From: a virus
Taxonomy: Duplodnaviria > Caudoviricetes
Reading direction: 5' to 3' (one strand)
Length of the DNA stretch: 49,458 bases
Virus record (IMG/VR): IMGVR_UViG_3300020045_001121
Coordinates: 1 to 49,458 of that record
How positions within the stretch are numbered: the first letter of the stretch is position 1; the number at the start of each line of letters is the position of its first letter. Positions 1,474-48,982 of this stretch are shown here, one piece after another. Under the pieces are notes generated by a model. The model searched no databases and was not told the DNA's origin. It saw only the letters and a program-made list of their open reading frames with translations. The position numbers and the translations under genes are program-made.

Positions 1474-2899
1474 GGAAAAGATGGCTGTTAAAGCGGCCAT
1501 GCAGGTTGATCATTTATTCTTTGCGCGTTACTTCTTCAGAATCCGAGAAGGTGTCAAATTTCGCATAAATTTGCACCACAAGGCTATTGCTGACGCTTTG
1601 CAGTTGGTCATGGATGGCAAGACTAAGCGCCTGATTATCAACGTTCCGCCGGGAAGCTCCAAGACTGAACTTGCCGTTATCAACTTTATGGCGCGTGGAT
1701 TAGCATTTAATCCACGGGCGCGATTCTTGCATCTTAGCTATAGCTCGGAACTGGCTGAGTTGAATTCAGCTAAGGCCAAAGAACTAATCACATCGGCTGA
1801 ATTTCAAGAGCTATTCCCGCTACCGATTAAGTCAGACTCTAACGCCCGTGGTCGCTGGAATGTTGTCGATAGCGACGGGATCTCAATTGGTGGATGCTAT
1901 GCCACGTCAACGCTCGGGCAGGTTACTGGATTTCGTGCTGGTCATATGGCCAAAGGGTTTCAAGGGGCAATCATCATCGATGACCCTTTGAAGCCCGCTG
2001 ACAGCCTTTCTAAGACAAAGCGCGATGCGGTTAACAATGCTTATATCAACACGGTGCAAAGCCGTAAAGCGTCACCTGACACGCCAGTTATTGTCATCAT
2101 GCAGCGCCTTGCCGACGAAGACCTTACCGGGTTTTTGCTTAATGGTGGGGATGGATATGAGTGGACGCACGTAAAAATTCCAGCGATTAACGATGATGGC
2201 GATAGCTACTGGCCTGAAAAAGAACCATTGGAAAGCCTTTTGCAGCTTAAGGAAAAAGGCAACTTCACGTTTGAAGGCCAGTATCAGCAAGAGCCGTATA
2301 TTCTTGGAGGTGAGTTAATCAAGGGTGAATGGTTTAAACGGTACACAGAGCTTCCAGGATGGCGTGAATTCAGCCGCCGCGCAGTGTTCGCTGACACGGC
2401 CATGAAGACGGGCGAGAATAACGATTACACGGTGTTTATTGATGCCGTGTTGCTTCGCACTGGGCAGGTGTATATCCTGAACTTATGGCGTAAAAAGGTT
2501 GACGCCGTGGGGTTGTTGATTATGGCCAAGGACATTTGGGCCAGTGTATCGGTTAACAACGGGCGTGAAGCATTGCCACCTGCGAGCGGGTTCTACATCG
2601 AGGATAAAGCTTCAGGAACTGGCCTAATTCAGCAGTTGAAGCATGAGCAAGGCTTTATTCCTGTAATGCCAGTACAACGCACAAAAGACAAGCTAACCCG
2701 CGTGATGGAGATTCAGCCACGTATTGAGTCAGGCGGTGTTTATATTCCTGAATCCGCTCCGTGGGTTGTTGACTTTTTGAGTGAGTGCGAGGCGTTTACA
2801 GCCACAGATACTCACAAAAATGATGATCAAATTGATCCTTTGGTGGATGCGATTAACACTTTTATGAGCAATCAGTTTGATTTATCGGCGTTGCTTTAA
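1460..2899 (+). CDS. terL: Terminase large subunit
   Basis: Walker A-like NVPPGSSKT, Walker B IIIDDP, C-terminal RNase H-like nuclease (FADTA...NDDQID). Confidence 0.95.
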   Translation: MLTSEEKMAVKAAMQVDHLFFARYFFRIREGVKFRINLHHKAIADALQLVMDGKTKRLIINVPPGSSKTELAVINFMARGLAFNPRARFLHLSYSSELAELNSAKAKELITSAEFQELFPLPIKSDSNARGRWNVVDSDGISIGGCYATSTLGQVTGFRAGHMAKGFQGAIIIDDPLKPADSLSKTKRDAVNNAYINTVQSRKASPDTPVIVIMQRLADEDLTGFLLNGGDGYEWTHVKIPAINDDGDSYWPEKEPLESLLQLKEKGNFTFEGQYQQEPYILGGELIKGEWFKRYTELPGWREFSRRAVFADTAMKTGENNDYTVFIDAVLLRTGQVYILNLWRKKVDAVGLLIMAKDIWASVSVNNGREALPPASGFYIEDKASGTGLIQQLKHEQGFIPVMPVQRTKDKLTRVMEIQPRIESGGVYIPESAPWVVDFLSECEAFTATDTHKNDDQIDPLVDAINTFMSNQFDLSALL

Positions 2900-3269: not shown

Positions 3270-4604
3270 ATGGAAAATCAAAAGCGAAGCCGGGGCCGAC
3301 CACGTAAAGACGTTGCACTGCGTAACGACGGGCCGTATATGAACACATTTATTTCGGTCGGAAATAGCAAAGACCGTAGCTCATACACCACGGCAGGCAC
3401 ACCGCGTATCCTTGAGCTTCAAGAGCTTGAGAACTTGTACCAAGGAAACGGCTTCGCCCGTCGCATCATCGACCTGCCAGCGTCTGATATGGTGCGTGCA
3501 TCATTCGAGATTGAAGGCGTCGAGGACTGTGAGCCTATCCTGGCTGAGCTAGAGGGCATTAATATGATGCCTAAGCTGTGCGATGCTATAAAGTGGTCTA
3601 GCTTGTACGGCGGGGCCTTGGTTGTCATGCTAGTGAATGATGGTGGCATGATGGAAGATGCGCTAGTCCCTGAGCGGGCTAAGTCTTTGGAGCAATTGCG
3701 CGTCTATGACCGTCATCAAGTAACCCGGTATAAGAAGTACACAGACCCCAGTGATATGCGCTTTGGCGGCACTGAGCTTTACATGATATCGCCAATTGAA
3801 GGGTCTCCATACGTGGTGCATGAGTCGCGCTGTTTGGTGTTTGATGGCGTATCAGTGCCCGACCGCACCCGCGCTATTAATGACGGCTGGGGGGCTAGTG
3901 TGTTGCAACAATGCGCCGATCAGCTTACCCGCTTTGGTATGTCTCACATTTGGGCTAACTCGCTGGTAGAGCGTGCACAACAGGCGGTTCACGGGATCCC
4001 TGAGCTAACCAATGTCCTGCGTAGTCCCGGTGGTGAGGCTTTGATTCGCCAGCGTCTTGACTTGGTTGACATGGCCCGTTCGATTAATAATACAGTCGCC
4101 ATTGATGCGGCTGAGTCATACGAACTGAAGTCAACGTCACTCGCTGGCGTACCTGACCTCATAGACCGCTTTGCGCTGGCTTTGTCGGCTGTCACGGGAA
4201 TCCCTGAATCGTTACTGTTTGGCAAGGCTACGGGGGGGTTAACGGCTTCGGGTGGTAACGACTTGGAGAACTGGTATTCCAAAGTAAGCCAGTTGCAAGA
4301 GACTATTCTTTTACCGGCTGTTGATAAATTGTGCGCAATTCAAATGCACGTCATGGGCCGGTATGTCGAGAATTACAAAATCGAGTTTGAATCTCTGTTT
4401 ATGCCTTCTGAGAAAGAAGAGGCTGAGATTGAAAAGCTAGAGGCAGAGGCTAAGAAAATAAAAGCTGATACCCATAATATTTATGTTACTGCCGGGGCAC
4501 TTGACCCTTCGGAGCTGCGCAAAATGCTCGCAGAAGATGAAGATTACATGATTGACAATGTAGACCTTATGCCTGAATTGCCTGATGCTGCTGAAATTGT
4601 TTAA
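3270..4604 (+). CDS. Portal protein (DUF1073-type)
   Basis: LY..NGFARRIIDLPA.DM, LYGGA, AVTGIP...LFG...GGL.ASG..DLENWY; position after TerL. Confidence 0.9.
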   Translation: MENQKRSRGRPRKDVALRNDGPYMNTFISVGNSKDRSSYTTAGTPRILELQELENLYQGNGFARRIIDLPASDMVRASFEIEGVEDCEPILAELEGINMMPKLCDAIKWSSLYGGALVVMLVNDGGMMEDALVPERAKSLEQLRVYDRHQVTRYKKYTDPSDMRFGGTELYMISPIEGSPYVVHESRCLVFDGVSVPDRTRAINDGWGASVLQQCADQLTRFGMSHIWANSLVERAQQAVHGIPELTNVLRSPGGEALIRQRLDLVDMARSINNTVAIDAAESYELKSTSLAGVPDLIDRFALALSAVTGIPESLLFGKATGGLTASGGNDLENWYSKVSQLQETILLPAVDKLCAIQMHVMGRYVENYKIEFESLFMPSEKEEAEIEKLEAEAKKIKADTHNIYVTAGALDPSELRKMLAEDEDYMIDNVDLMPELPDAAEIV

Positions 4605-4629
4605 AATATATCTAATTTAAAGGTAAAAA

Positions 4630-4890
4630 ATGCTTGACTCATTCGGACAAATTGGTGATTCCCCTGAATTTTCAGCCCGTAACTTATTCGCCATAACTCC
4701 TGGCGCGTCTGATTTAGATCGAGTTACAAAAGCGGTTTACATCGGTACTGGTGGCAATATCGAATTGCAAGCTATTGGAGATACCGCATCAGTGATTATG
4801 AAAGTATCTGACGGCCAGATTATCCCTGTGCGTGCGCGCAAGGTAATCGCAACTGGTACGACTGCAACAGGCATCGTGGGTATGGCATGA
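4630..4890 (+). CDS. Head spike base protein (RcGTA Rcc01079-like)
   Basis: FAITP...DL...TKAVYIGTGGNI...G.IIPVRA.KV.ATGTTATGIVG resembles the family as recalled. Confidence 0.7.
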   Translation: MLDSFGQIGDSPEFSARNLFAITPGASDLDRVTKAVYIGTGGNIELQAIGDTASVIMKVSDGQIIPVRARKVIATGTTATGIVGMA

Positions 4891-6020
4891 TTGGTCTAGG
4901 GCTTGGCATTACGCAACTTTCGTGCCGTGGATTTACAGCCGCTCAAAGGGTTGTAAACGACGCCCTGCGCGTCTTCCGCACCTTCGGTTCCGACTCCCAT
5001 ATCTGGCTACCCGGCGTAGGCCAAGTAAACGGCCTGACAGCAGGCAACTGGATAGATTCAGCGGGCACAGTTCCTGCTGTTATTGATAATCCAGTTGGCA
5101 AAGTTACAGACAGTTTAGGTGGCATCCACGCCACTCAGAGCACGACTGGGAGCAAGCCGATATTGCGAAGGGGGATTTTGAATATACTGCTACAAAGCGC
5201 CACTCCAGCACTACAGTCTGTCACGCTTACAGCGGCACCTTACACGCTAGCAATGTACGGCACTGGCTCAGTGGTAGTGGCTGGCGGGTATGTTGGAACA
5301 CTTAACGGGACTGGTGCAAGTAATCTTGTTGTGCTTAACTTCACGTCACTTGCATTGATCACATCATTCACGCCAGTAGGGTCTGTTACATCGTTTGGAC
5401 TTTTCGCCGGAACCCTCACAGCCCAACAAATCCAAGCAGCCGGTGGAATTCCCATCACCACCACAGCACCAGCAAGCTCATCGCAAGGGCTAAGTTACTG
5501 GCAATTCGACGGTAATGATTCGCTGGCTTTGAGTGGGCCGGTGTTTCAGATGGCGGATGATCATTGTGTTATAGCAGCGGCGAGTGTCGGGGCTGCTGCT
5601 GGCATGAATAATAACGTCATTATTTGCCCATCTGGCGACTCGGTCGTAGCTTCAGTAAAGCGACTCGGTCAAATATCGTATGATGCTGTTGCTGGGTTAA
5701 TATCAGCATCATGGTTCGACGGGGTAAACTACGATAACCTTGTGTATAGCTACCCAAGAGACACCAAGTTCATTGCCACCGCTCGCAAGACGGGGTCGAC
5801 ATTAGAACTCTGGGTTAACGGGGTCTTTAGAGCCACAAAGCAAGCAACGGCCTCCTTTACGGCAAACACCGGGTCGATAGGTGCCTACCCAACTAGCTTA
5901 GCACTTGGTAATTTCACTGGCGCAATTTATTACGCAAATGCAGTGAAGGCCACAGTCTCTGATGTGGATCGCGTAATTGGCGAGAAATACGCAGCCCTAG
6001 CAGCCGGAGTAACACTATGA
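4887..6020 (+). CDS. Head fibre/spike with LamG/concanavalin-like domain
   Basis: N-terminal MIGLGLGI, HATQST...KP, WQFDGNDSL, LWVNG; coupled to the spike-base gene. Confidence 0.6.
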   Translation: MIGLGLGITQLSCRGFTAAQRVVNDALRVFRTFGSDSHIWLPGVGQVNGLTAGNWIDSAGTVPAVIDNPVGKVTDSLGGIHATQSTTGSKPILRRGILNILLQSATPALQSVTLTAAPYTLAMYGTGSVVVAGGYVGTLNGTGASNLVVLNFTSLALITSFTPVGSVTSFGLFAGTLTAQQIQAAGGIPITTTAPASSSQGLSYWQFDGNDSLALSGPVFQMADDHCVIAAASVGAAAGMNNNVIICPSGDSVVASVKRLGQISYDAVAGLISASWFDGVNYDNLVYSYPRDTKFIATARKTGSTLELWVNGVFRATKQATASFTANTGSIGAYPTSLALGNFTGAIYYANAVKATVSDVDRVIGEKYAALAAGVTL

Positions 6021-6394: not shown

Positions 6395-7175
6395 CACTGT
6401 AGAGCGTGAATACACGCGGGAGCTAGTCAGGTATTCAAAGAATCTACAAAGCGACGTAAACGCACTTGTATTGCCTGCAATTGGCATTATGAAACGACAG
6501 TTAGAGAGTGAGCTAAAGACTGACGGATGGATAGATGAGTTAGCGGCATTGATGCTTGAATTGGCTAACTTAGCATTAGGCCATAGCTCTATTGTGGTGC
6601 GTAAACTTCCCGGCTACTTTGAGGCTGTTAGTAAATTTAACGAGGGCCAGTTTAAGATGGTAGTCAAGTCTAATACCGGCCTAGACTTGCCACACGTTAT
6701 GCAAGGTGCGCCATCGTCGTCTATTCTGGGTGTTAACGTGTTTCGCAGTGAGCCATATCTCAAGCCACTGGCAGAAGCGTGGGTAAGCGAAAATACGGCG
6801 CTGATTAAGTCACTGCCAACAAAATTACACCCTGAGATTGAAGGTATTATTCGGCGTGGCGTGATGGCGGGCACGTCTGTAAAAGACATTCAGAACCAGA
6901 TCAAAGAGCGTTACGGCGTGACGGATTACCGTGCTAAGTTGATAGCGCAAGATCAGACACTCAAGATGAATGCTGACCTTACTAGATACAGGCTCCAATC
7001 AGTTGGCGTAAAGGAATATACATGGCGCACTGTCCAAGACAGCCGCGTGCGTCCTGACCATGTAGAGCGCAATGGAAAGCTGTTTACATGGGATAAACCG
7101 CCGCCAGATGGGCATCCAGGACAACCTGTGCGGTGTCGATGTAGGGCGGAGGCGGTTTGGGATGAAGAGCTTTAG
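6363..7175 (+). CDS. Minor head morphogenesis protein (MuF/SPP1 gp7)
   Basis: RAKLIAQDQT...Y.WRT..D.RVRPDH...NGK.F.W...HPGQPVRCRC. Confidence 0.9.
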   Translation: MTKKTTFNNPDTVEREYTRELVRYSKNLQSDVNALVLPAIGIMKRQLESELKTDGWIDELAALMLELANLALGHSSIVVRKLPGYFEAVSKFNEGQFKMVVKSNTGLDLPHVMQGAPSSSILGVNVFRSEPYLKPLAEAWVSENTALIKSLPTKLHPEIEGIIRRGVMAGTSVKDIQNQIKERYGVTDYRAKLIAQDQTLKMNADLTRYRLQSVGVKEYTWRTVQDSRVRPDHVERNGKLFTWDKPPPDGHPGQPVRCRCRAEAVWDEEL

Positions 7176-7474
7176 TTTCCTGTTGCTTTGTGGATTGCTT
7201 TCTTTGCTCTTTTCAAGTCTTCTTTTGAGTCGCTTGAAACTCCAGCGATTACGCAAAGAAGATCACGTACAGAGTCAAGCAAGTCAGGGGCCGCTGAAAT
7301 CAAGTGAGCATCCATTGAGTTTGCATCAATAATGCTTGTTTGCGTACCGGATGCAGAGCCATCATCAATAATGATTTCTCCATCTTCATTCATTAGGCTA
7401 TAGAAGTTTGATGATACAAACGGTCCTTGATGTTTATGCCAATTCCATTTGCCTTTTGTTTGCTTTGTCGTCAT
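7172..7474 (-). CDS. Hypothetical phage protein (A.LI.AAPDLL family), antisense insert
   Basis: TKGKW...DAHLISAAPDLLD; AAGG RBS; promoter motif at 7501-7511. Confidence 0.7.
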   Translation of the reverse strand: MTTKQTKGKWNWHKHQGPFVSSNFYSLMNEDGEIIIDDGSASGTQTSIIDANSMDAHLISAAPDLLDSVRDLLCVIAGVSSDSKEDLKRAKKAIHKATGN

Positions 7475-7577
7475 GTTTATCCTTGGTTGATTGAGCCGCA
7501 AGTGTAGCTCAAAGACACAACAAACCCAGCTAAAAAAATAAAAAGTTTGCATGAAATTTCACAGTGTTTTTGTGTTA

Positions 7578-13064: not shown

Positions 13065-13358
13065 TTATTGGCCTGTTGCTTTGGATTTTGCTGCACGCAG
13101 CAGTTTGCTTGCGTTTGCATAATGAAGCATTGCCGAAATATCATCACCTGAACTCATTGCATCCTCATATGCAATAAATGCCATTGCGCCTTCATGGTAA
13201 TCTGGCGCTGCTGCGATTAGGCGGGCGTTTGATTCTTCTTCCGAGCCAAGCCCGCTATTTGTTTCTGCAATAAAAAATTTACCTGCTTTTATTTCAAAGT
13301 TACCGGCATCGCCTGAAAATTCAAATGCAGTCCAAGGCCCCGGCGTATGCTTACTCAT
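13065..13358 (-). CDS. Hypothetical phage protein (HTPGPW...NARLIAAAPD family)
   Basis: Motifs MSKHTPGPW and NARLIAAAPD. Confidence 0.75.
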   Translation of the reverse strand: MSKHTPGPWTAFEFSGDAGNFEIKAGKFFIAETNSGLGSEEESNARLIAAAPDYHEGAMAFIAYEDAMSSGDDISAMLHYANASKLLRAAKSKATGQ

Positions 13359-14139: not shown

Positions 14140-14469
14140 TTACGGGATTTGCTTGCCAATTTCAGCTGCAGCACGGACTATTGCGCGGCGAGTTGACGCG
14201 TACGGATTAACCCAATAGTCTTCGTCAGAATCTTCTGCAATATTCTTACTGCTTGCGCTTATGCAGCAACTTGCGCCGGTGAAGTTTCTAATATCGATAC
14301 GCAACTTCACAACCAGACGAAGCGCATCTCCATCGTCTTCAAGTGGGTTCCAGTTACTTCTTGGATTTGGCGAAAGCAACTGCAATCCAGATTCTCCAGC
14401 GAATTCTATATCGCTATATTTGTACTCTACAGCCTTAGCCGCCAACTCAAGTAATTCACGATCATTCAT
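14140..14469 (-). CDS. Hypothetical phage protein, paralog of 30511..30846
   Basis: DRELLELAAKA...WNPL.DDGDALRL.VKL...ASTRRAIV.AAAEIGKQ. Confidence 0.75.
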   Translation of the reverse strand: MNDRELLELAAKAVEYKYSDIEFAGESGLQLLSPNPRSNWNPLEDDGDALRLVVKLRIDIRNFTGASCCISASSKNIAEDSDEDYWVNPYASTRRAIVRAAAEIGKQIP

Positions 14470-14557
14470 TTTGTAACCTATTTTGTTGTTGATTGAGCAA
14501 TCAGTGTAGCACAGCAAAACAAGACAATCACAATCTTTTTTCAACTATTTTCACATT

Positions 14558-19704: not shown

Positions 19705-20135
19705 TTATCGCTGAAATCCCACTGTTAGCAGATACGACTGATCAACTGGTTGACGTTGTTTTAAGTGATAACCCGTACACATTGCGCATTCTTTGGAATG
19801 AGAAGTACGGTTATTTTTCATTGTCAATTTACGCTCGGGATGGCGCTGTCATTCTTGAGAATATCAAGATGGTGAAAAACTACCCGCTAATTGGCCGGTT
19901 TAAAAATACGCTTCTGCCAATTGGTGATTTGTATTTCATTGACAACAAAAACAAACACTCACGCGCACTTTACGAATCAGTCGGAACGGGTGATTATTCA
20001 CTTGTTTATTATGTGCCTGATGCTGTTGTGTCTGAGGTGGTGGTTATCACGCCAGTAGAGGCTTTTAGCGGGTCGATCTGGGACAGTGGCCTGTCTGTAT
20101 GGGATAGCGGTTCGTCTGCGTGGGATGGTGCCTAA
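19701..20135 (+). CDS. Baseplate protein with C-terminal WD-x-G repeats
   Basis: EIPL....Q...V.L....Y.L...WN; tail IWDSGLSVWDSGSSAWDG. Confidence 0.7.
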   Translation: MIIAEIPLLADTTDQLVDVVLSDNPYTLRILWNEKYGYFSLSIYARDGAVILENIKMVKNYPLIGRFKNTLLPIGDLYFIDNKNKHSRALYESVGTGDYSLVYYVPDAVVSEVVVITPVEAFSGSIWDSGLSVWDSGSSAWDGA

Positions 20136-21058
20136 TGGCTTTATTTGACCGTGTAGCCTCGCTGATTGTTGGAAAGCCTGACGGTAAAGCCGTCGAGATT
20201 CGTGATCTACGGTTTTCATTCGCCATTGAGAAGGGTTCGATTGACACTCCAAATTCGTGTACTTGTCGAATCTACAATTTAAACAAAGACTCACGCGCTT
20301 TAGTCGAGACCGTCAACAACATTCTGATTTTGAAGGCGGGTTACAAACGCGACGTTGGCGAGATAACCATTTTCACCGGTACGGTTACTCGGGCTTTAAC
20401 TCGCATTGAAGGCGCTGATTCTGTCACCGAGTTGGAAATGTCAGACGGTGGTGCAGAATACAAAGACACAAAAACATCATTCAGCTTCGCGCCCGGCGTA
20501 TCGGCTCAGCAGGTTTTAAGCAACATTGCAGCCACGTTTAAGCTGCCTATACGGCCATTGCCAAGCGAGATAGCCACCAAGACATATCCAGATGGTTTCG
20601 CATTCATTGGCCGCTCACGCGAAGCGATGAAAAAGGCTTGTGATTTTCTAGGGCTTGAGTGGTCAATCCAGAATCGAGAGTTGCAAATGCTGAAACAAGG
20701 TAAAGCCGTTGATATGCAAGCCTTTGTTCTATCACCTGATACCGGGTTGATTGAGTCGCCAGAATCAGAGCATAAGATTTACTCTGAAAAGACAGCCGCT
20801 AAAAAAGGATTCACCGAAAAGCAAAAGGGCGTGCGCATGACCTATGGCGAAACCGAAGGCGGTAAGAACGAAAAGAAACTAGAGGTCCAAGGCTACCGCG
20901 TGAAAAGCCTTTTACAGCCAGCATTGCAGCCTGGTGGATATGTGCGATTGGATACCCGAGGGATTGATAAAGAGTACTTTAGAGTCGAAAACATCAACCA
21001 CGTCGGTGATTCTCACGGCGCTGACTGGTTTTCGCAGTTGGTTTTGCGGTATGTGTAA
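20135..21058 (+). CDS. Baseplate hub protein
   Basis: LR..F.I.K......N....IYNL, L.AGY, WSIQN..LQ, LSPDTGLI.SP, SLLQP.LQPG, H.GD.HG..W. Confidence 0.85.
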   Translation: MALFDRVASLIVGKPDGKAVEIRDLRFSFAIEKGSIDTPNSCTCRIYNLNKDSRALVETVNNILILKAGYKRDVGEITIFTGTVTRALTRIEGADSVTELEMSDGGAEYKDTKTSFSFAPGVSAQQVLSNIAATFKLPIRPLPSEIATKTYPDGFAFIGRSREAMKKACDFLGLEWSIQNRELQMLKQGKAVDMQAFVLSPDTGLIESPESEHKIYSEKTAAKKGFTEKQKGVRMTYGETEGGKNEKKLEVQGYRVKSLLQPALQPGGYVRLDTRGIDKEYFRVENINHVGDSHGADWFSQLVLRYV

Positions 21059-21103
21059 TGGTTCAAGCTTTCCACCTGATTGTCTCGCTACCTCCGAGAT
21101 AGG

Positions 21104-22004
21104 AGCTTATCTAGAATAAGCTGGTTAGGGTGGGGTGGCCGGTACTGATTTCCGGCATGGCTTCTTTCTGTTGCCAAAGACAACATGGTCTTACCTGACT
21201 AGCGCATCAGCCTGCGCATTCACCCCGTAAATTTTGATGGTGCAAGTGGGCTTCATACACTTGACGCTTTTATCTAGTTCACCATCAATCATGAACCCTG
21301 ACTTTACCCATACCGATTGCTAACTATGGCAAGGCTCATGATTGATAGCCGCATGGATTCCACATGCGCCCACTTCGTTTTAAGTCTTCGTGTCCGACTT
21401 TGATGGTTGCCGATTACGCCGTTAAGCGTTCTTGCGTCCGTTTGTTTACCCGTGTACTTTGGCAAACGTGCACTATCTATACCAAACCATCAAGTAAGCG
21501 GGCTGGGCTTGATTCCAGCTTCGCGGCGCGGGCACTATGTCCCGCGTTTACCCTTGGCTGGCCGGCTTACAACGTCCGGTGCCTGCGATAGCGCTCTTGC
21601 TGCGCTGCGTGTCCATCCACGCCGCCGCTTACTTGATAGTCCACGTCTTTCCGTGGGGTCACATAAATCTGAATCCTACTGAAAGTGAATTTATGAAGCA
21701 CTCACCAGCGTTTAACCGTCGCTGGCTTAACCGCCTTTCGGCTACGTTCCGCTATAACGGATATGGTTGATGGTGGAGGGACTCGAACCCTCTCGCGCTT
21801 CTGTGCCTCCAGGACTGCATAACGCTGCCATTCACCATCAAGTAAGCACAGGACGCAGCACGCTGGATTTAGACACCTTCGTACTCGGCACCAGCACAGT
21901 CAGAAATCACTCTGAACTTGTCTATTCCACCTGCTTGATAAATACAGGATCGTAGAGGTACGCTATCGCTGGCCTATGCTTACTTGATGACACTATTTCT
22001 AGTG
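21104..22004 (-). ncRNA. Array of structured, partly tRNA-like RNA domains
   Basis: Closing helices at 21132/21226, 21234/21288, 21284/21346, 21400/21493, 21489/21637, 21767/21841 and 21836/21989; G-U pairs favour the - strand; no credible ORF. Confidence 0.75.
21764..21840 (-). ncRNA. 77-nt tRNA-like RNA with CCA end, no assignable anticodon
   Basis: UGAUGGUG/CACCAUCA acceptor, GAGGG-UUCGAGU-CCCUC T arm, A-CCA 3' end. Confidence 0.7.
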
Positions 22005-22014
22005 CTTGGACTGA

Positions 22015-22044
22015 AGTTTAACGCCATTTCACTCAAAAATTCAA
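22015..22044 (-). promoter_or_regulatory. Putative promoter for the RNA array
   Basis: - strand TTGAAT-18 nt-TAAACT just upstream of the first hairpin. Confidence 0.5.
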
Positions 22045-22081
22045 TTTTGTTAAAAAATATTTATGGGCTAAAATGTGATAT

Positions 22082-22738
22082 ATGGCAGAAAATAACGACT
22101 TTATCAGCGCATTAAAAAGCATGGTAGACGGTCGCCTGCATGAAATCAATACAAGCCTGCCTGGTGTTATCACTGGTTACGCCAATGGCCGCGCTAGTGT
22201 TCAACCTACGCCTAAACGGCGCTTTGTTGATGGCGACGTTTTGACGTTCCCAATTCTGCAAAACGTGCGGGTTTGCTGGCCTAGCTTTAGTGGCGGGTCG
22301 GCGGGTGTCAAGGGGCCAATTAAAGCCGGTGATAAGTGCCTGCTAGTGTTCGCTCAGCAAGCTGTAGATGGCACGGATGATGCTCGCCGTTTTGATATTT
22401 CTGACTCTTATTGCATCCCTTGTGATCTCGGTAGTGCTGGCGCTGGTGATAGTGGCAATAACGACGCTATGACAGTGTTTTACGGGGCTGCATCAATGAG
22501 GCTTACCGCTGGCGGTGCTTTGGTCATTACAGCGCCTGGAGGGGTCGCTATTGAGGCTCCAAGCGTATCAAATAGCGGGTCACTTTCAAACGCTGGTGCC
22601 GTATCTATGGACTCAACCTTGATTGCGTCAGGTCAGGCCACTTTCACCACTGGCGCAAACATTGGCGGGATTGAATTCTCAGATCACGTCCACAGTGGCG
22701 TATCTACTGGGTTATCAAATACAGGGACTCCAGTTTGA
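22082..22738 (+). CDS. Baseplate central spike (Gp138/GpV-like)
   Basis: TSLPG.I, P...GD.CLL.FA, R.FD.SD, C-terminal H.HSGV metal-binding tip. Confidence 0.88.
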   Translation: MAENNDFISALKSMVDGRLHEINTSLPGVITGYANGRASVQPTPKRRFVDGDVLTFPILQNVRVCWPSFSGGSAGVKGPIKAGDKCLLVFAQQAVDGTDDARRFDISDSYCIPCDLGSAGAGDSGNNDAMTVFYGAASMRLTAGGALVITAPGGVAIEAPSVSNSGSLSNAGAVSMDSTLIASGQATFTTGANIGGIEFSDHVHSGVSTGLSNTGTPV

Positions 22739-23203: not shown

Positions 23204-25006
23204 ATGGCACAACTACCTTTAGATCAAGCTATAAAAAGACTTCAAACAAATGACGAACGGCTTGAAAAGTTTGCCAATGGTGGAGTTGGTGAAAGTTACA
23301 CGTCATCCGCTGGCGCAGTTGTTCCGTCTATTCAAAAATTCTTAGCAACAAAAAACACAGAGATTAATGTCGGAGCTGAAAGCGCTTTGGCTGGAGCTGT
23401 AGCTGCAATGGAAGCCGCTGAATTAAGTGCGACTGATGCCGCTGATTCTGCCGCGTCTTTGATTGGCTCTGGTACTGCTGCATTGATTGGTACGGTGCCA
23501 GCCGGTAATTTGACGGCGGTTAATGTTCAGGGTGCGTTAGACGAACTTGATTACGAAAAAGTTTCTATTAATCAATTGGCTTCCACAGATGGCGCATCAC
23601 TGATTGGCTACATTACTGATGGCGTTGGCGCTGTTGATACTACGGTGCATGGAAGGCTACGTGAGATAGATTACATAGTAGATGGGTTGGATTCTTTCAA
23701 ATACTTGGAAAGCACGTTAAACGGAGTGTCATCATTCCTCGAAAACGAAATCAGCGACTACCGTGGCGACAACTTGCCTACCTATCTACGTCGAGTTGTT
23801 GAGTATCGTCGCTTGGTTGGAAGCACAGAAATATATGAGGCAGTCGCTGAGAAGTCTATCAACACGACAGCAGTTGCATATTGTTTGCGCTACTACGCAA
23901 CCATTTCGAAAAACTACCCGACACAAGCTGGTCAAACCAGACACCACATTGCCGTATTGGCAGATGCGCTGGTAGCACTACAGCACAAAGACGCGCGCAA
24001 AGCCAGATTTGGCGGAATTGCACTCGCCCCCAAGGATGGATCAGCAAGTGCTTTTGGGTCGGCTTACGCTGGACTTGGTTTGCTTGCAGCATACCGAGTC
24101 ACAAATAACCCAGCGTATCTTCAGGCATGCCGAAATATCGCAACTTTTCTATCCGTACTCAACAGCCCTAACGCCAAATACACTGCGATATACGGTGTAG
24201 CACCCATCCCTGCTGTAGCACAGAATGCTACGTGGAATGGGTTCTGTGATCAGATCAGTGCATCTGACACGATCACGACAACGCACACTACATGGAACCT
24301 TGTCGGATGTATGTTCCTGAAAGAACTCTACGAAGAGACGGGCACTACGGCTTATCAAACGCTTTACGTTGCGGTGCGCGACTGGGGCGCAACCGGCCTG
24401 ACGAGTTTCTATGACTTTCACGCTGTCTACCATGCTGGGGCATTGCCTGCGCATGTGAGCAACAATTGGTTCGCCGCTGGCATCACAAAGCAAGACGGTG
24501 CATGGCATCGGCGCGGCGAAGATGTACTGTCGGGCGGGCTGGCCGTCAACACCATCGGTAGTGATCAAATGGAGTACGCCATTGAGGCGCTCTATGCCAC
24601 GGGCTACACATTGGCGACGATAAAAACCGCCTACGACACGATCCAGTCGTGGCCGAATGCAGACGGTGGTGCTTTTGGCGCAGCCTATGACGGGCGCATC
24701 TGCTGGCCCGGTTATTTCCGCATCAACGCGCCTGTTTATGGCGGCGAGTCAAAAGCGTATGGCAGCCACTACGACACCCAGGGCATCGGTCCATTGCTTA
24801 AATTCAAGCATGATCAGTATCCATCGCACTATGCGGTATCTGAGCCCAAAGCGTTGCTTGCACCGACTATTGGTACGCTGGTAGATAAGGACTTCGCCAC
24901 GATCTGGAGCGCCGATTATTCAGGTGTTTTTGAATATACGACAGTCGGAACAGGAACTGTAAAAGGCGTAATTGCCATTGGACTCATGGAGGCATTAAAT
25001 GCGTAG
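23204..25006 (+). CDS. Tailspike-like protein with a putative alpha-helical toroid enzymatic domain
   Basis: N-terminal virion-anchor motifs (NVQGALDEL, GASLIGY...GAV..TV...LRE); C-terminal repeats LL.AY.VT....YL and L.ELYE.TG...Y. Confidence 0.6.
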   Translation: MAQLPLDQAIKRLQTNDERLEKFANGGVGESYTSSAGAVVPSIQKFLATKNTEINVGAESALAGAVAAMEAAELSATDAADSAASLIGSGTAALIGTVPAGNLTAVNVQGALDELDYEKVSINQLASTDGASLIGYITDGVGAVDTTVHGRLREIDYIVDGLDSFKYLESTLNGVSSFLENEISDYRGDNLPTYLRRVVEYRRLVGSTEIYEAVAEKSINTTAVAYCLRYYATISKNYPTQAGQTRHHIAVLADALVALQHKDARKARFGGIALAPKDGSASAFGSAYAGLGLLAAYRVTNNPAYLQACRNIATFLSVLNSPNAKYTAIYGVAPIPAVAQNATWNGFCDQISASDTITTTHTTWNLVGCMFLKELYEETGTTAYQTLYVAVRDWGATGLTSFYDFHAVYHAGALPAHVSNNWFAAGITKQDGAWHRRGEDVLSGGLAVNTIGSDQMEYAIEALYATGYTLATIKTAYDTIQSWPNADGGAFGAAYDGRICWPGYFRINAPVYGGESKAYGSHYDTQGIGPLLKFKHDQYPSHYAVSEPKALLAPTIGTLVDKDFATIWSADYSGVFEYTTVGTGTVKGVIAIGLMEALNA

Positions 25007-25928
25007 TATTTACAAAAACATTGCTCACAATCCCCGCTTTCAGCTTTGGCCTTTTGGCTCAAGTGGGATTGTGGCGACAGGCCCAACTGCTGCTCGTTGG
25101 AAGCTAGAGCTAACAAACGCTAATGATGTGGTCGCAGTATCAAAAGGCACCAATGCCAGCACGACAAAATACGATAAGTGGATGCGCAGCGAAGCCAATA
25201 TGACAATCGCGGTCACAGGGCTGGATGCGGCAAGCACACTGCGCATCCGTCAATTCCAAGAGTGGGCAGAGGATTTCGGACAGAATTGCGTTGTCATGAC
25301 GGTGATTGCGTCAGGGCCAGCAGGGTCTAGTTTTTATTTCGGCATTGGCGATAACTACGATACGCTCACCACACTCGGAAATGATGCAGGTGGGGACCCT
25401 ATCATGGTAGCAAAGACATCTACTTTTGCTTTTGATGATCCCGTGTATGAATACATGCGCGTAACTCCTTTTGAGTCGCCTTCTGCTGTTGGTACTTATC
25501 GATTGCACTATGTAAACGCTGAGGTCATGGCAAATCCAAATGAGCGCAGCGAGTTCGAGCTTCGCCCAGAATGGGAAGAGTGGGACATCATTAAACGCTA
25601 CATTACACCCATTAAAACTGGGATGTTTGCCACTGGGGCTGGGGTGACGGGTATTCGTATACCAGTAGTAGCACCACCCGGCGGCTGGAGAATTGCGCCA
25701 TCCATTGCACCTGGCGGGAGGGCAACGTCAGTAAAAATCAATTTGAATAGTGGTGGCACTGAGATTACAAACAACGCTCCCGTATTTACTTTGGCTACAA
25801 CACCACCCCCAAATGTGCACGGATGTGTGATTTTATTCACCGGGTTTACTACCACGGCGGCGGCAAGCCAGTACGTCATTGGTGACAACCCTGACCCTAT
25901 CTTTTACCTAAACGCTGACTATTTCTAA
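24999..25928 (+). CDS. Hypothetical structural/receptor-binding protein
   Basis: 309-aa beta-rich ORF with GGAGG RBS, ending L.ADY. Confidence 0.6.
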   Translation: MRSIYKNIAHNPRFQLWPFGSSGIVATGPTAARWKLELTNANDVVAVSKGTNASTTKYDKWMRSEANMTIAVTGLDAASTLRIRQFQEWAEDFGQNCVVMTVIASGPAGSSFYFGIGDNYDTLTTLGNDAGGDPIMVAKTSTFAFDDPVYEYMRVTPFESPSAVGTYRLHYVNAEVMANPNERSEFELRPEWEEWDIIKRYITPIKTGMFATGAGVTGIRIPVVAPPGGWRIAPSIAPGGRATSVKINLNSGGTEITNNAPVFTLATTPPPNVHGCVILFTGFTTTAAASQYVIGDNPDPIFYLNADYF

Positions 25929-30510: not shown

Positions 30511-30846
30511 TTATGGCATTTGCTTGCCGATTTCGGCGGCTGCACATACGATGGCACGTCTTGTGGAAGCTAATGGATTTCCATGATGAAAATCGCAAGA
30601 CTCAGATATTTTTGCTTCATCGTCTACAAGCACAGAATAATCTCCTTGCATAATATTTAACTTCAACTTCACCGACAACCGCAGCGCATCACCATCGTCT
30701 TTTAGTGGATTCCACTTTCCACCATCAAACGGAAGTTGCAGCCCTCCGCTAAAGTATTCGATAACTTCACCGTCATCAGTTCGTTGATACTCAATATTTG
30801 CAGCCTTCGCCGCCAGTTCAAGCAATTCTCGATCAGTCATCATCAT
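30511..30846 (-). CDS. Hypothetical phage protein, paralog of 14140..14469
   Basis: Shared motifs DRELLELAAKA, WNPL.DDGDALRL, ASTRRAIV.AAAEIGKQ. Confidence 0.75.
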   Translation of the reverse strand: MMMTDRELLELAAKAANIEYQRTDDGEVIEYFSGGLQLPFDGGKWNPLKDDGDALRLSVKLKLNIMQGDYSVLVDDEAKISESCDFHHGNPLASTRRAIVCAAAEIGKQMP

Positions 30847-31145
30847 TCCTTCACAAAACAACCATTAGGCATCAAAGTGCCTTTACGGTCTTTGATCTCT
30901 TGGTAAGCTGAATCCAAGCAAGAAACCAAATCTAGATTCTCCTTTTCAGCAACGATAATCAGCGTCACCAATACGTCACCAAAGCCATCAATAACGCCTT
31001 CACGGTCTCCTTTGATAAGTGCGTCTGCCAGTTCACCAAGCTCTGAAACTGTCTTCAAAAGCTGGGTTTGGCTTGTGGCGTTTGGGATAATCTTACGAGC
31101 CTTGGCCCATTCGATTACTTGTGTTTCTAGTGTTTCAAATTTCAT
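30843..31145 (-). CDS. MazG-like NTP pyrophosphohydrolase
   Basis: WA..R.I, Q.LK..SE.GELADA, D..GD.LVTLI, CL..AY.EIKDRKG. Confidence 0.88.
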   Translation of the reverse strand: MKFETLETQVIEWAKARKIIPNATSQTQLLKTVSELGELADALIKGDREGVIDGFGDVLVTLIIVAEKENLDLVSCLDSAYQEIKDRKGTLMPNGCFVKE

Positions 31146-34363: not shown

Positions 34364-35955
34364 TCTGTTTTACTCCAAACTCTATCAATCACGTTAAAAA
34401 ATTTACCGTTCTTTTTGTGGCTTATCATGCTTGGTGGTTGTCCAATGGTTAAGCAAATTGCACAATGATCTAGATCATCGCTTAATGTAACGTCAGCTCT
34501 TTTTGCTATGTCTGCAACTGTCTGACGGGCCTTTATTCCTGCGTAATTGGTGTGGTTGACTGCATGATATTCAACAATCGCAGGGTTTGACAGTCCACCA
34601 TAGTAGCGCACTTGGAGCATGTCTAGGCCACTGGTTCGGCTTGTGTGCTTTTTCCACGCCCAGCTTGTCACCTGCATTTCGGTTGGTTCGATGCCCATGA
34701 TGTCCTCTCCGCGCAGGTAAACCTCTTTTGGCTTTTCATCTGGTGGTGGGAACTGGTGGCCACACGCGTCGCATTGTCTGACGCTTGCGTGGCATAGCTC
34801 GTCACATTGTGGACATGTCTTTGTTGGTGCTATTCCTGAGCCTTTACCGCCGCGCTTTGGTGGTGTTATCTGAGTGATTGGGCCGTGGGTGGCTACGTTT
34901 CCTGCGAAGTCTAGGACCATGCAATCTGTTTTTCCTGGTGCAATGCGTAAGCCCCTCCCGCTCATCTGGTAGAAAAGTGCAGCAGAAAGTGTGGGTCGCA
35001 GCATAACAATGCAGTCAATATTTGGCGCATCAAAACCAGTAGTCAAAATCCCCATGTTGGTGACTGCCTGAATTTTCCCGGCTTTGAAGTCTTTCAGGAT
35101 GCTGTCACGTTCCGCGTTTGGTGTGTTGCCAGTCACTGATTCAGCGCTTATGCCATGTTCTCGCAGCATATCGCGCACGTCTTCGCTGTGCTGTACCCCG
35201 GCACAAAATACAATCCAGCTTTTGCGATCTTTGGCGCGTTCTATCGTCTCTAAAACAGCCTTGACGTTGTTGTCGCTGGTATTCATGGCGACCTCTAGCG
35301 ACCGTCCTATAAACTCACCTCCTGACTTTTTAACTCCATCGGTTGATAGCGTCATTGATGTGTGCTTGCTTCGCAATGGTGCAAGGTAGCCACTCTCGAT
35401 AAGCTCCAAAATTGAAACGGGTTCAATCAAGTCTGAGAAAATAACCTCGTCGCCTTCATGGATCATCCCGTGACCTAATCGGTACGGGCTTGCCGTCAAG
35501 CCAATGACCCGCATATCTGGGTTAATCTCTAACAGGTCAGCGATTAAACGGCGATAGGTGCCGTTTTCTGTTGGACTGATTGAATGGCATTCATCCACGA
35601 TTAGCAAGTCGATATGGCCTATTTGCTTGCCTCTTTTGGCTACGCTTTGCACTCCTGCAAAAACAATCGGCTCTGTAAGGCAATACCGTTTAAGGCTTGC
35701 AGAATAAATACCCATTGGCGCATTAGGCCAGTGCTGGCGCATTTTTTCTGCGTTCTGCGCGATAAGCTCCTTTGAGTGCGTCAACATCAAAACCCGCGTT
35801 CCGGGCCATGATTGGATAGCATCCTTAACCAGTGCGGCGATGATGTGGCTTTTTCCTGCGCCAGTTGGTAGGACTAAGCAAGGGTTCCCAGTGTTACCAG
35901 CTGAAAACCACTCGTAGAGCATGTCGATGCTCCGTTGCTGATATTCACGCAACAT
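34360..35955 (-). CDS. SF2 DExH helicase with zinc finger (RadD/YejH-like)
   Basis: LREYQ, PTGAGKS, DECH, TASP, LTTGFDAP, QMSGRGLR, CPQC...C..CGH. Confidence 0.92.
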   Translation of the reverse strand: MLREYQQRSIDMLYEWFSAGNTGNPCLVLPTGAGKSHIIAALVKDAIQSWPGTRVLMLTHSKELIAQNAEKMRQHWPNAPMGIYSASLKRYCLTEPIVFAGVQSVAKRGKQIGHIDLLIVDECHSISPTENGTYRRLIADLLEINPDMRVIGLTASPYRLGHGMIHEGDEVIFSDLIEPVSILELIESGYLAPLRSKHTSMTLSTDGVKKSGGEFIGRSLEVAMNTSDNNVKAVLETIERAKDRKSWIVFCAGVQHSEDVRDMLREHGISAESVTGNTPNAERDSILKDFKAGKIQAVTNMGILTTGFDAPNIDCIVMLRPTLSAALFYQMSGRGLRIAPGKTDCMVLDFAGNVATHGPITQITPPKRGGKGSGIAPTKTCPQCDELCHASVRQCDACGHQFPPPDEKPKEVYLRGEDIMGIEPTEMQVTSWAWKKHTSRTSGLDMLQVRYYGGLSNPAIVEYHAVNHTNYAGIKARQTVADIAKRADVTLSDDLDHCAICLTIGQPPSMISHKKNGKFFNVIDRVWSKTE

Positions 35956-36379
35956 CTAAATTCTCACTTTTTAATTGTTCATAAATCAAATTCAATAACA
36001 TTGGCTGAAGTTTTTCCATAATATTCATTGAAATTAAAAAAACATCGCCATCACTTAGCTTTACTTTTTTCACTATTTCAGATTTCCAAAATGGAGATTT
36101 CTCAGTTACTGAAGAAACCTTTTTGTTAGTTTCATGTTCATCAAGCATAATTTTTGCCTTAGACCTAGCATGATCTAGGGTCATTTTTTCATTTGATCTT
36201 ATTGCAGTCCTAACTGATTTTTTATCAATTCTGCATTGAAAAATAAAAGATACCTTACCTTTTTTTATTTTTCTAATTCCAAAGCCATTTACAAGCGAAT
36301 CCCATATAAACAATTGTGACTCGTTATCACTGTTTTGAAATTCGTCTAAAACTTCTTGAGTTATTAGAACTTTTCCCAT
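35945..36379 (-). CDS. Stand-alone integrase arm-type DNA-binding domain protein
   Basis: IWDS...GFGIR....G..SFIFQ.R.......I.....MTL..AR.KA; no catalytic domain; AT-rich. Confidence 0.6.
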   Translation of the reverse strand: MGKVLITQEVLDEFQNSDNESQLFIWDSLVNGFGIRKIKKGKVSFIFQCRIDKKSVRTAIRSNEKMTLDHARSKAKIMLDEHETNKKVSSVTEKSPFWKSEIVKKVKLSDGDVFLISMNIMEKLQPMLLNLIYEQLKSENLDVA

Positions 36380-37462: not shown

Positions 37463-39958
37463 TTACTCTGTTTCTACGTCCAAAATATCAAAAAGTGAAG
37501 GCATAGAAAACTCTTTTTCTGCTGACTTTAGGTAATGAACTTGGTCAACAAAATAGGCCGCATTCAACTCGCTACCTCCACCTGTACGGCCTTTGAGAAT
37601 GGCGCGATAAGGCACAGTTCCAAGGCCGCAAAATGGGTCATAAACCTTATCTCCTTTGTTGCTGTAGCGTTCAATCAAACGATCAACAATGTCGAATTGC
37701 AAAGGGCAAATATGTTTTTCAGTGTTGCGCTTTGACTGATCTCCGTTAAGAGTCAACATCCTCAAAATGTCATGCCAAACGCCTTCATCGTTTGAACCAG
37801 GCGCAAGGCTCATAAAGGTAGATGGAAGTGATCCGCGTGCCTCCAGTTCTTCACCAATTTTTACGTGAAAATCATAATCATAGATTGTGTTCAAGCTATA
37901 TTTTGTGAACATGCTTGCCAACTTATCCGGGCCAAGTTGCGCCATTTCCTCACTGGTAATGCTGCGGTTTCCACTGGAGCGCCAGAATGCGTGAGCGTCA
38001 ACTTGCCAATGTGCCCGTGTGTAATCAGCTTTCGACTTCATCACTGGTAGGTCGGCATATCCACGGCTACGATCTGTTTGTGGCTTGCGAAACAAAACGA
38101 TGTACTCTGGTGAACCAACTCCCATTTTGGTGCCGTCCTTACACTGCTCTGACCATCCAAGACGGTAGGTTCCGTTGTTCTCGCGTACAACGTCAGTTAC
38201 CACTGTAATCATTCCAAGGTAGTCGAAACCGTGTTTAATTCCGTGCATGATGGTTTCGCAGTGAAACGGGCTTGAAGTTGGTACGCCGGTTCCGGTTGCA
38301 TTTCCAAACAAGATGCGATCTTTGACGTGGCAACAATACAATCGACCCGGCTGCAACATGCGTAACAGTTCAGGCGTCAGATAGTCCATCTGTTTCCAGA
38401 ATTGATCGTTGTCCTCAGTGTGGCCAAAGTCGTTATATGATGGGCTGTATTCGTAATGGTTCGCAAATGGGATGCTTGTAACCATCAGGCCGACGCTGTT
38501 ATCTGGTTGCAGCTTCGCTTCTTCTACGCAGTCATTATTTGCGACTTCGAACTTGTCGCCAGTTACTACAATTCGTTTTGAGCCAATTGAACGGGCCAAA
38601 ACGTCTTGCATTGCAAGTTGATTCAGGCCGTATTGCTTAATAATTTTTGTCATATTTTCAACCATAACTTCGTGGTTTGCCCACTTTGCTTGTAATGTGC
38701 GCAAAACTTCGCGCTCTGCTTCGCTGTAAATGATGTCAATTCGCACTTTGTTCGGCTGCTGGAATCGCTGGATTCGGTGGCAGGCTTGAATAAAGTCGTT
38801 AAACTTAAAACCGATACCCGCGAAAATAGCGCGGTGGCAGTGGCGTTGAAAGTTGCAACCTGACCCGGCAATGATTGGTTTTGTTGACAGGATGCGGTAT
38901 CCACCGTTTCCAAAGTCAACGATACGTTGCTCACGCAGGTCGAGGTCTTGACTGCCCCAAACGCTCACGGTTTCAGGTATTGCTTTTTGAATTGAATGGC
39001 GCTCTTGTTCTAGGTCGTGCCAAATTACAAAATGATCTTCTGGCGATAAATCGACAATCTCTTTTGCTTTAGCAACCCGTGAACCCATGCTGTCGCGCTT
39101 TTCGCTTGCAGCTTGAGACAATCCGAGTGCCGGATTCTGAAACATCAGATTTTGACCATCACGGTCAGCACCTGCCATTGTGTAGTCGGTCGGAACTTCG
39201 TGGTAAACAACCTCCATTTCAGGTAAGTCATAGCCTTCGTCTGAATAACCAAGATCACTTGGTTTTTGGATGAACACCGCCCAGCTTGATACCCATAACC
39301 AGAACTCTTGTTCTTTGTGCGGGTAAAGTGTAAGGTTATTGGCTTGCGTGCTGTCACGCTGGAAAAACCGCGTAAGAGCTTGGCCGGTGTCCATAATGCC
39401 TAAAAATCCGGCGTAGTGAATCAACTCTTTAAAGCGATTCGGCGAAGGTGTTGCTGTATTTACAAGCTTGAACTTTACCTTTGCGAAGATTGGTAAAAAC
39501 TCTTGATAGGTTTTGCTGCCATAGCTTCTCAAAACACTAGCTTCATCAAGACTTACGGCGGTAAAGTGTGACGGGTCAAGTTTGCCGTCACGCGCTGATT
39601 CGTAGTTTGTGATGTAAAAGTGGTGATCTGGTGTCATCTCTTCCATGCGACGGATAAAGCGAAGTTCTACGCCTACCATTGCAGCGTCACGAATAAGCTC
39701 TTGCCTAACACCAAGCGGGCAAATAATCAAGCCATCGCCACCTGCTGAATTGATAATCTGGCGAAGCCATTCACATTGCATTACAGACTTGCCAAGTCCA
39801 AACTTAGCGAAGATGGCTCGGTTTCCACCTTGTACAGCCCATTGGCAGATATCGCGCTGGTGCGGGTACAAAATTGGATGCAGGTTATTTGGTTCAATAG
39901 TGTACCCACTGAAATTCGCCATCTTTATCTTCTGGCGTAAGAAATCATCGTAACTCAT
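37463..39958 (-). CDS. SNF2-like helicase fused to N4/N6 DNA methyltransferase
   Basis: GLGKS, DEAS, TATP.PN, Q...RI.RF.Q; then TSIPF, HICPLQ, DPFCGLGT. Confidence 0.88.
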   Translation of the reverse strand: MSYDDFLRQKIKMANFSGYTIEPNNLHPILYPHQRDICQWAVQGGNRAIFAKFGLGKSVMQCEWLRQIINSAGGDGLIICPLGVRQELIRDAAMVGVELRFIRRMEEMTPDHHFYITNYESARDGKLDPSHFTAVSLDEASVLRSYGSKTYQEFLPIFAKVKFKLVNTATPSPNRFKELIHYAGFLGIMDTGQALTRFFQRDSTQANNLTLYPHKEQEFWLWVSSWAVFIQKPSDLGYSDEGYDLPEMEVVYHEVPTDYTMAGADRDGQNLMFQNPALGLSQAASEKRDSMGSRVAKAKEIVDLSPEDHFVIWHDLEQERHSIQKAIPETVSVWGSQDLDLREQRIVDFGNGGYRILSTKPIIAGSGCNFQRHCHRAIFAGIGFKFNDFIQACHRIQRFQQPNKVRIDIIYSEAEREVLRTLQAKWANHEVMVENMTKIIKQYGLNQLAMQDVLARSIGSKRIVVTGDKFEVANNDCVEEAKLQPDNSVGLMVTSIPFANHYEYSPSYNDFGHTEDNDQFWKQMDYLTPELLRMLQPGRLYCCHVKDRILFGNATGTGVPTSSPFHCETIMHGIKHGFDYLGMITVVTDVVRENNGTYRLGWSEQCKDGTKMGVGSPEYIVLFRKPQTDRSRGYADLPVMKSKADYTRAHWQVDAHAFWRSSGNRSITSEEMAQLGPDKLASMFTKYSLNTIYDYDFHVKIGEELEARGSLPSTFMSLAPGSNDEGVWHDILRMLTLNGDQSKRNTEKHICPLQFDIVDRLIERYSNKGDKVYDPFCGLGTVPYRAILKGRTGGGSELNAAYFVDQVHYLKSAEKEFSMPSLFDILDVETE

Positions 39959-48973: not shown

Positions 48974-48982
48974 AAACACCAC

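Follow-up and report, generated by a model that had tools for sequence, protein, structure and literature searches.

A probable minus-strand array of overlapping RNA cassettes, with predicted RNase III processing, between the baseplate hub and spike genes of a contractile-tailed phage

What does a phage encode in a gap of 1023 nt between its baseplate hub and spike genes when the interval holds no credible protein gene? Direct terminal repeats mark the 49-kb virus record that makes up the window examined here, meaning the whole stretch of 49,458 nucleotides that was analysed, and a PHROGs scan indicates that this phage carries a contractile-tail gene set. Its terminase is closest to those of Burkholderia phages, at 50%, and Betaproteobacterial RNA families give sub-threshold matches beside related elements in other loci; together these matches suggest a Betaproteobacterial host. 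The sole open reading frame of at least 80 aa in the gap is a 91-aa frame with a TTG start, and relatives rearrange the gap module by module, in agreement with the first-pass annotation of this DNA, which saw no credible ORF there. Our reading is that the gap probably holds a minus-strand array of overlapping RNAs which would be cut by RNase III, would often be tRNA-shaped and would carry swappable cargo acting on the host. The flanking genes and the elements of the array, the latter in the order in which the minus strand would be transcribed, are as follows.

20120..21058, plus strand: baseplate hub gene, left flank (phrog_196, E 6.5e-70)
22082..22738, plus strand: baseplate spike gene, right flank (~39% identity to annotated spikes)
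22047..22074, plus strand: promoter-like site facing the spike gene (sole scanner call, at chance level for the region)
22015..22044, minus strand: putative sigma-70-type promoter of the array, from sequence and -10 conservation (-35 at 22044-22039, -10 at 22020-22015)
21983..22005, minus strand: leader 1, comprising a short hairpin, an RCYATCA-like core heptamer and the 2 nt that precede the predicted cut
21841..21982, minus strand: A1, predicted product of RNase III, 142 nt (scores best in register 0, with a full score of -23.1)
21764..21840, minus strand: B1, predicted 77-nt tRNA-like RNA (from its fold; homologue in L271)
21632..21762, minus strand: hairpin-rich spacer ending in leader 2 (from its folds)
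21493..21631, minus strand: A2, predicted 139-nt product (from its fold; register 0 best, full score -29.1)
21400..21492, minus strand: B2, predicted 93-nt helix-closed RNA (from its fold)
21341..21399, minus strand: spacer of two hairpins ending in core 3, at 21349-21343 (from its folds)
21288..21340, minus strand: A3, predicted 53-nt hairpin product (z -3.8 on the minus strand versus -1.2 on the plus strand)
21234..21287, minus strand: B3, predicted 54-nt mini cassette of a closing stem and one stacked hairpin
21129..21226, minus strand: C, stand-alone tRNA-like scaffold with a 45-nt cargo (complementary D-like and T-like loops)
21060..21127, minus strand: three terminal hairpins, replaced by tRNA(CAU) in several relatives

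The window thus contains three A+B units, followed by the stand-alone tRNA-like element C and then by three hairpins. Each unit is laid out as leader hairpin, RCYATCA, cassette A, TGATRGY, cassette B and RCCATCA; every long A helix lends its 3' arm to the next B helix, where it acts as the 5' arm, and the middle heptamer TGATRGY is able to pair with either heptamer copy. The first-pass annotation had described long closing helices that tile the gap almost end to end, and all of them are present where it placed them (14 of the 14 named arms start or end there), but they overlap and are not simple tiles. A strict A-helix detector recovered three stems in the entire 49-kb window and no others; the helices measure 19, 16 and 19 bp, with an outer part of 7 bp.

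The cassettes differ in their interiors. The structured core of A1 is common to unrelated phages, with homologues in L178, L190 and L328 and as B cargo in L009. B1 has an 8-bp acceptor-like stem, a canonical T arm and an A-CCA end, without a normal anticodon arm, and scores 22.1 bits as an Rfam tRNA, for which the threshold is 29 bits. Leader 2 is a hairpin with a GGAAAGAC loop at 21660-21641, its core lying at 21640-21634, and the A2 cassette behind it combines a 7-bp acceptor-like stem, a D-like arm, an 87-nt cargo, a T-like arm and a 2-nt overhang; a homologue search returned no match elsewhere for this cargo. B2 is without canonical T loop or CCA, and B3 is without canonical T loop. A3 belongs to the most frequent A type in the family, and the scaffold of C is used as a B cassette elsewhere and occurs in cultured phages.

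Folding supports the antisense reading of the locus, as the interval 21060-22012 has a z score of -7.5 on the minus strand versus -3.9 on the plus strand (20 shuffles each). The A stems of the family contain 36 G-U versus 7 A-C pairs on the minus strand, which bears out the earlier remark that stem mismatches become G-U pairs on that strand, and of the 16 relatives that were scanned, 6 have a true tRNA(CAU) gene at the array end, also in the minus orientation. The TTGAAT-18-TAAACT site that had been suggested as a promoter is present at 22044 / 22020, and its -10 pattern T-A-n-n-n-T is kept in the window and in all 15 relatives listed, but the promoter scanner did not call the site, which has 8 of 12 consensus bases against a threshold of 9. 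The promoter-like site on the plus strand at 22047..22074 would restart the structural operon after the array.

Other parts of the window hold features of separate interest. Minus-strand inserts occur at 7172-7552, 13065-13358, 14140-14544 and 30511-30861; three sit in the structural operon, two paralogue pairs are found among them (phrog_1273 x2 and phrog_5086 x2), and a GC-TACAAT/TACACT motif lies upstream of several minus-strand starts of the window. Frames of 600, 309 and 377 aa in the structural region (23204-25928 and 4887-6020, plus strand) have no PHROG match, and 37463-39958 on the minus strand encodes an 831-aa protein in which a helicase-like region is fused to a DNA methyltransferase domain. 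ARAGORN reports a 91-nt tRNA-Lys at 34617-34707 (plus strand), inside a helicase frame on the opposite strand; this is probably a false call because it has no Rfam match and a poor acceptor stem. A short repeat containing CTGCCCC is present in several copies at 48950-49250, directly after the primase gene, and this region is possibly an origin.

Within the A helix, the inner pairs show preferences that depend on their position. G-C stands at pair 6 and A-U or U-A at pair 5 in 64 of 78 stems each, A-U at pair 4 in 47 of 78, and U-A and U-G at pairs 12 and 11, preferences that agree with the proximal and distal box rules given in the accessible part of PMC1540722. To score them, we applied the matrix of Table S4 of PMC6212723, which was derived for E. 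coli RNase III and may not be that of the host, to 78 distinct A stems in 15 registers; the set included one false window A (103 nt) that is absent from later A/B counts. Register 0 was best in 63 of the 78 stems (49 of 78 with the inner pairs alone), although the stems share ancestry and the counts are not independent; the median full score was -24.8, and none of 2000 permutations reached the observed mean. After thinning, register 0 was best in 30 of 40 stems, and among A stems without a T arm it was best in 38 of 45, with a distal-box U-A in 28 and U-G in 20. The other 15 of the 78 score best in another register. The window has both kinds, A1 and A2 favouring register 0 and the A3 copy favouring register +2 (5.8 versus 3.9 at register 0).

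At register 0 the predicted cuts directly precede TGATRGY and follow RCYATCA by 2 nt. Independently of this scoring, 42 of 92 A cassettes have a 5-bp hairpin whose end lies exactly 9 nt ahead of the predicted cut (every other distance occurs in 2-9 cassettes), a spacing equal to a 7-bp acceptor-like stem plus a 2-nt overhang. The first letter behind B is A in 45 of 58 copies and the second is C in 46, the full A-CCA being found in 8 of 58. An RNase III substrate helix is ~22 bp long, and with window helices of 19, 16 and 19 bp, and an outer part of 7 bp, stacking of the leader hairpin would be needed. When the predicted products were cofolded as after the cut, B closed on itself in unit 1, and the leader stayed bound by 1-2 kcal/mol in units 2 and 3 (standard state). 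We consider release of the A and B cassettes by RNase III a very likely route of biogenesis.

For a fair test of this grammar, the query was the leader hairpin plus the first heptamer alone. This query retrieved 61 viral loci, 55 of them distinct, and 40 metagenome loci. A downstream A helix closing on TGATRGY was present in 41 of the 55 distinct loci versus 1 of 550 shuffles, and closure of A plus B in 37 of 55 versus 0 of 550. Some of the misses are variants in which the centre and the B 3' end are altered together; in L235, L238 and L261 the centre and B covary and the leader is left mismatched. Pattern scans place the layout in unrelated contigs of 39-66% G+C, adjoining terminase, portal or replication genes, and the interiors of the A stems covary freely. 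Other scans marked the limits of the pattern: a 14-base pattern scan of viral contigs gave mostly chance matches, with an A arm in 7 of 120 loci; the genome collection scan gave 3 matches, none with the layout; a sample of 401 genomes from one phylum yielded no leader pattern; no plasmid matched the window array; and the L009 array gave matches over scaffold-sized stretches or the flank alone. Near 114 loci there was no recurrent partner protein besides terminase, spike, hub and general phage genes.

Individual loci show variations on the theme. L264 carries a permuted tmRNA after the units (1211-1447, 79.5 bits), and a short frame resembling a tmRNA tag was seen by eye before the unit in two cultured phages (L332 ~970-1010, L333 ~980-1020). 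An HNH-like reading frame occupies the cargo slot of a C-type B cassette in L179 (~1000-1500, minus strand), and L190 has a B of 608 nt. L244 is an empty allele and L289 a filled one, with an identical upstream flank, the same downstream gene and A+B between two heptamer copies.

Closer relatives provide a view of cassette turnover. A search with the spike gave 37 loci, 17 of which also have a hub of at least 61% identity, and 14 of these 17 hub-spike loci contain cassette arrays of 486-1225 nt. In L020 the same slot (3902-4606), preceded by a similar promoter, holds short protein frames and no RNA cassettes; the gap is 42 nt in L021 and L022 and 3 nt in six loci with a hub of ~51% identity, and L021-L028 have no array. 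The 14 hub-spike arrays together with the window, L018 and L097 make up 17 family arrays, in which, with families defined at 75% identity, 36 A cassettes fall into 22 families and 32 B cassettes into 18. These are freely re-paired: the A3 type precedes 7 B families and the B2 type follows 5 A families. The A2 scaffold was found in 9 family copies with 8 different cargos, which together with the re-pairing supports the earlier suggestion of a constant scaffold with variable cargo. L003-L010 have hubs 94-97% identical to that of the window, yet they have only 285-622 of 1026 nt in common with it, so that the cargo turnover envisaged for the hub-spike interval is indeed seen. As most of the relative contigs share one IMG/VR dataset prefix, they are best regarded as one population and not as independent lineages.

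Many of the predicted products resemble part of a tRNA. T-like arms that carry a stacked acceptor-like stem are seen in 42 of the 92 A's and in 55 of the 80 B's, and in the window in B1, A2 and C, not in B2 or A3. T-loops number 17 versus 0.6 in shuffles, and GNRA loops 15 versus 4.4. Many of the predicted products can be described as tRNA top halves in which cargo replaces the anticodon arm. Among 41 scaffold-cargo rows of the C scaffold, the D-like and T-like loops are complementary over at least 4 bp in 20 of 21 distinct loop pairs, and compensatory versions occur, although the signal is modest (52 of 5000 shuffles). In the A1 core, compared across unrelated phages in five sequences, 18 of 48 pairs are doubly changed; as this core covaries across unrelated phages, we regard the cargo as being under selection. 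The stem covariation on which the earlier reading depended is found in the stem interiors. The A1 core (21860-21960, minus strand; L178, L190, L328 and L009) also has a 6-bp pairing that includes a compensatory change and a second covarying helix, which could form a pseudoknot.

Known RNA families do not account for these elements. Rfam 15 gave 0 matches in the window at the gathering threshold, the best sub-threshold scores being 22.9 bits for mascRNA and 22.1 bits for tRNA; in relatives, only tRNA and one permuted tmRNA pass the threshold. Neither ARAGORN nor Rfam called a canonical tRNA in the array interval, and cassettes in L003, L007, L237 and L257 score 32-48 bits as tRNA but have enlarged middles. 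No CRISPR direct-repeat family was among the Rfam matches and there was no regular repeat-spacer pattern, and comparison of the cargo with known defence RNAs and host targets gave no match. Near the B cassettes of L252, L270, L271 and L286 there are sub-threshold matches to anti-hemB, Betaproteobacteria toxic sRNA and Burkholderiales-2. With turnover, covarying stems and the lack of an Rfam family taken together, the sequence supports the proposed polycistronic small-RNA locus on the minus strand.

One function offered for it, that of decoys for host anticodon nucleases, is not supported. Anticodon-like loops are not enriched: 18 pass the filter, of which 11 are T-loop-like and 2 are scaffold loops, and there are none in 37 C cargos. 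The 7-nt loops are mostly T-loops and D-like loops, and the anticodon arm has been replaced by cargo.

Single units with the same geometry can be recognised in two well-studied systems. For the dicB operon of the Qin prophage in E. coli K-12, the accessible part of the PMC6212723 supplement lists RNase III cuts at 1649182/1649251 and 1649454/1649584. An 8-bp closing helix lying downstream begins exactly at the in vivo cut 1649251, and between the two cuts of the second pair lies a 130-nt cloverleaf whose start resembles that of the C scaffold. As in the array, one strand of the downstream closing helix is also used by the upstream repeat and the cut stem; these mapped cuts fit the layout, so RNase III acts on it in at least one living system. 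Qin differs in its core sequence and in having its units within a protein-coding leader, and what could be consulted of PMC6212723 lists them as processing sites and not as a source of tRNA-shaped cargo RNAs. The three-unit stand-alone array with swapped cargo is a feature of the window and not of Qin. Faubladier is said to have described, in 1990, RNase III sites around DicF in the same operon. A Qin-like cloverleaf with one mapped RNase III cut also lies before kilR in the Rac prophage (L338, 1418258-1418391).

In the lambda late leader, after the 6S RNA, a bulged stem and a downstream closing helix show the A-then-B overlap, and predicted cuts at 44796 and 44857 would give a 61-nt A. RNase III sites in the lambda late transcript were reportedly placed near +209 and +270 by Daniels in 1988. 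The array, Qin and lambda have in common that the 3' arm of a cut stem goes on to form the 5' strand of a closing helix further downstream, whereas the core is TGATRGY in the array and GTTGTG in the Qin and lambda units; use of the C scaffold as B links both, and both Klebsiella phage 6991 and swi2, a phage of E. coli, have a lambda-type A stem joined to the C scaffold of the window. Lambda differs from the array in having one unit with another core, co-transcribed with late genes. The accessible portion of a preprint (bioRxiv 10.1101/2024.10.31.621285) describes LPR2 as an Hfq-bound lytic RNA of ~63 nt from the lambda late operon near 6S RNA, and places PreS outside the late leader; from its size and region, we infer that LPR2 may be the lambda A product.

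More distant comparisons help to delimit what is new. RNase III stems of E. coli and T7, as presented in the available parts of PMC1540722 and PMC6212723, share the proximal and distal box preferences of the array; in the array, by contrast, the outer arm also provides the next RNA with its 5' strand, and the loop that would be cut out resembles a product. The rnaC (species 1) and rnaD genes within the T4 tRNA cluster encode small stable phage RNAs, like the array products, and rnaC combines a 3'-terminal canonical T arm with a middle part unlike that of a tRNA. They are, however, single fixed genes in which no overlap grammar was seen, and their comparison with the array showed no meaningful sequence similarity (best E 0.016-0.057); a 13-nt match between rnaC and the array was dismissed as being at chance level. 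The P1 c4 and P4 CI antisense RNAs are phage RNAs of cloverleaf shape that a host nuclease excises from a precursor, RNase P making their ends. This class gave no Rfam match in any scan, and the window has no complementary target for it. The literature searched, which did not extend to most subscription papers, contained no account of an overlap relay or of exchangeable-cargo arrays, and none such are described in the accessible parts of PMC12197685, PMC7547250 and PMC5371410. The first-pass annotation did not recognise the array as a described system; this holds in that there is no Rfam family and no published account of such an array, but is overstated in view of the single units of Qin and lambda. 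Already known are lambdoid leaders in which single stems are cut by RNase III, and phage RNAs that resemble tRNAs. New are the joined mechanism with its predicted ends, the link to mapped sites and the shuffling of cassettes within one phage population.

We propose the following series of events. During transcription, the TGATRGY heptamer would first close A in a helix of 16-20 bp, and the leader hairpin would stack on the 7-bp outer helix and so complete the RNase III binding site. Host RNase III would then cut just 5' of TGATRGY and 2 nt past RCYATCA, releasing A with a 2-nt 3' overhang and often with a 7-bp acceptor-like stem under a T-like arm. The 3' heptamer copy of B would displace the cut leader and close B flush at its new 5' end, with A-C-C lying behind the closed B in many copies. 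The tRNA elbow and acceptor stem would provide a stabilising frame for the cargo. Crossovers may also take place at the common heptamers, in agreement with the free re-pairing of the A and B cassettes.

The use to which such products are put is a separate matter. We tentatively favour protein-binding or decoy RNAs directed against host surveillance and defence, a choice that draws on turnover and position only and that could well prove wrong. An accessory host-conflict locus fits the fast exchange of structured cargo, the putative promoter of its own, the dispensability of the array and the protein genes found in the L020 slot. Base-pairing sRNAs or sponges, made by the same processing and comparable to LPR2 of lambda or to DicF beside the Qin units, are a less likely outcome. 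The agreement between the predicted 61-nt lambda A and LPR2, ~63 nt in the accessible part of the preprint and near 6S RNA, would suit them, as would the sub-threshold Betaproteobacterial sRNA families adjoining B in four loci; against this, unpaired anti-Shine-Dalgarno motifs show no excess (7 versus 8.3), the helix-closed products are without U-rich tails, and no stretch complementary to the array occurs elsewhere in the window. It is more improbable still that the stems are mere punctuation, maturing an adjacent tRNA or trimming or stopping the antisense transcript, with cargo that is mostly neutral filler and either drifts or hosts selfish genes. The tRNA(CAU) at the array end of some relatives, the loci L021-L028 without an array and the HNH-like frame in the L179 cargo slot could be explained in this way, but the three units of the window come without any tRNA that could be matured, compensatory pairs are kept in the A1 core of unrelated phages, and the scaffold loops covary.

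Different routes to the ends were also weighed. RNase P could make them, the overlap being a folding switch that frees the leader of A once B has formed; in T-arm A's the T loop also lies at a distance of 12 bp from the predicted 5' end, and 7 or 8 bp plus a T stem are present in 55 of 80 B copies. We hold this to be quite improbable, as the RNase III signature with its distal box persists in A's without a T arm, the leader-trailer pairing extends 7 bp past the cut, and the Qin counterpart is RNase III dependent in vivo. Because direct repeats flank A+B and both pair with one central strand, one might also imagine a self-splinted precursor whose heptamers are trimmed and whose nicked dumbbell is ligated into a circular A+B RNA. 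Such a circle has very little in its favour beyond this geometry, given the predicted cut between A and B, the covariation of centre and B beside a mismatched leader in L235, L238 and L261, and the lack of a common neighbour protein. Reverse transcriptase, RNA ligase and integrase were all missing from the 68 window frames scanned with PHROGs and the 43 scanned with Pfam, a weak Arm-DNA-binding match below the cut-off at 35945-36379 being noted among the frames of at least 80 aa scanned. That result bears equally on integron-like DNA cassettes, in which A would act as a recombination site made of folded single-stranded DNA, with B as its cassette. The resemblance to integrons is one of grammar alone, variable folded interiors being enclosed by inverted 7-bp cores, and free A-B re-pairing and the shared upstream flank of the L244 and L289 alleles would be expected of them; no integrase lies near the 114 other loci either, T loops, G-U bias and tRNAs indicate RNA, most final B cores have no subsequent A, and the L244 and L289 downstream junctions are not identical, so that we find this reading scarcely credible.

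The preferred reading, a relay of RNase III-released RNAs, would offer a compact route to several stable RNAs from one promoter. It provides exact predicted ends for a phage RNA class outside Rfam that is represented in ~100 unrelated viral and metagenome loci and is tied to two laboratory models, lambda and the Qin prophage. The exchange of cargo among near-identical phages makes the array a likely front of phage-host conflict. A broader proposition, which is conceivable but doubtful, is that Proteobacterial phages possess a general modular RNase III relay that delivers tRNA-framed, exchangeable anti-defence RNA effectors in the anticodon-arm slot. If this is true, the relay would be nature's own version of the tRNA-scaffold trick and would correspond, at the RNA level, to anti-defence gene islands, and the lambda late leader and the Qin dicB leader would be overlooked members with one unit each.
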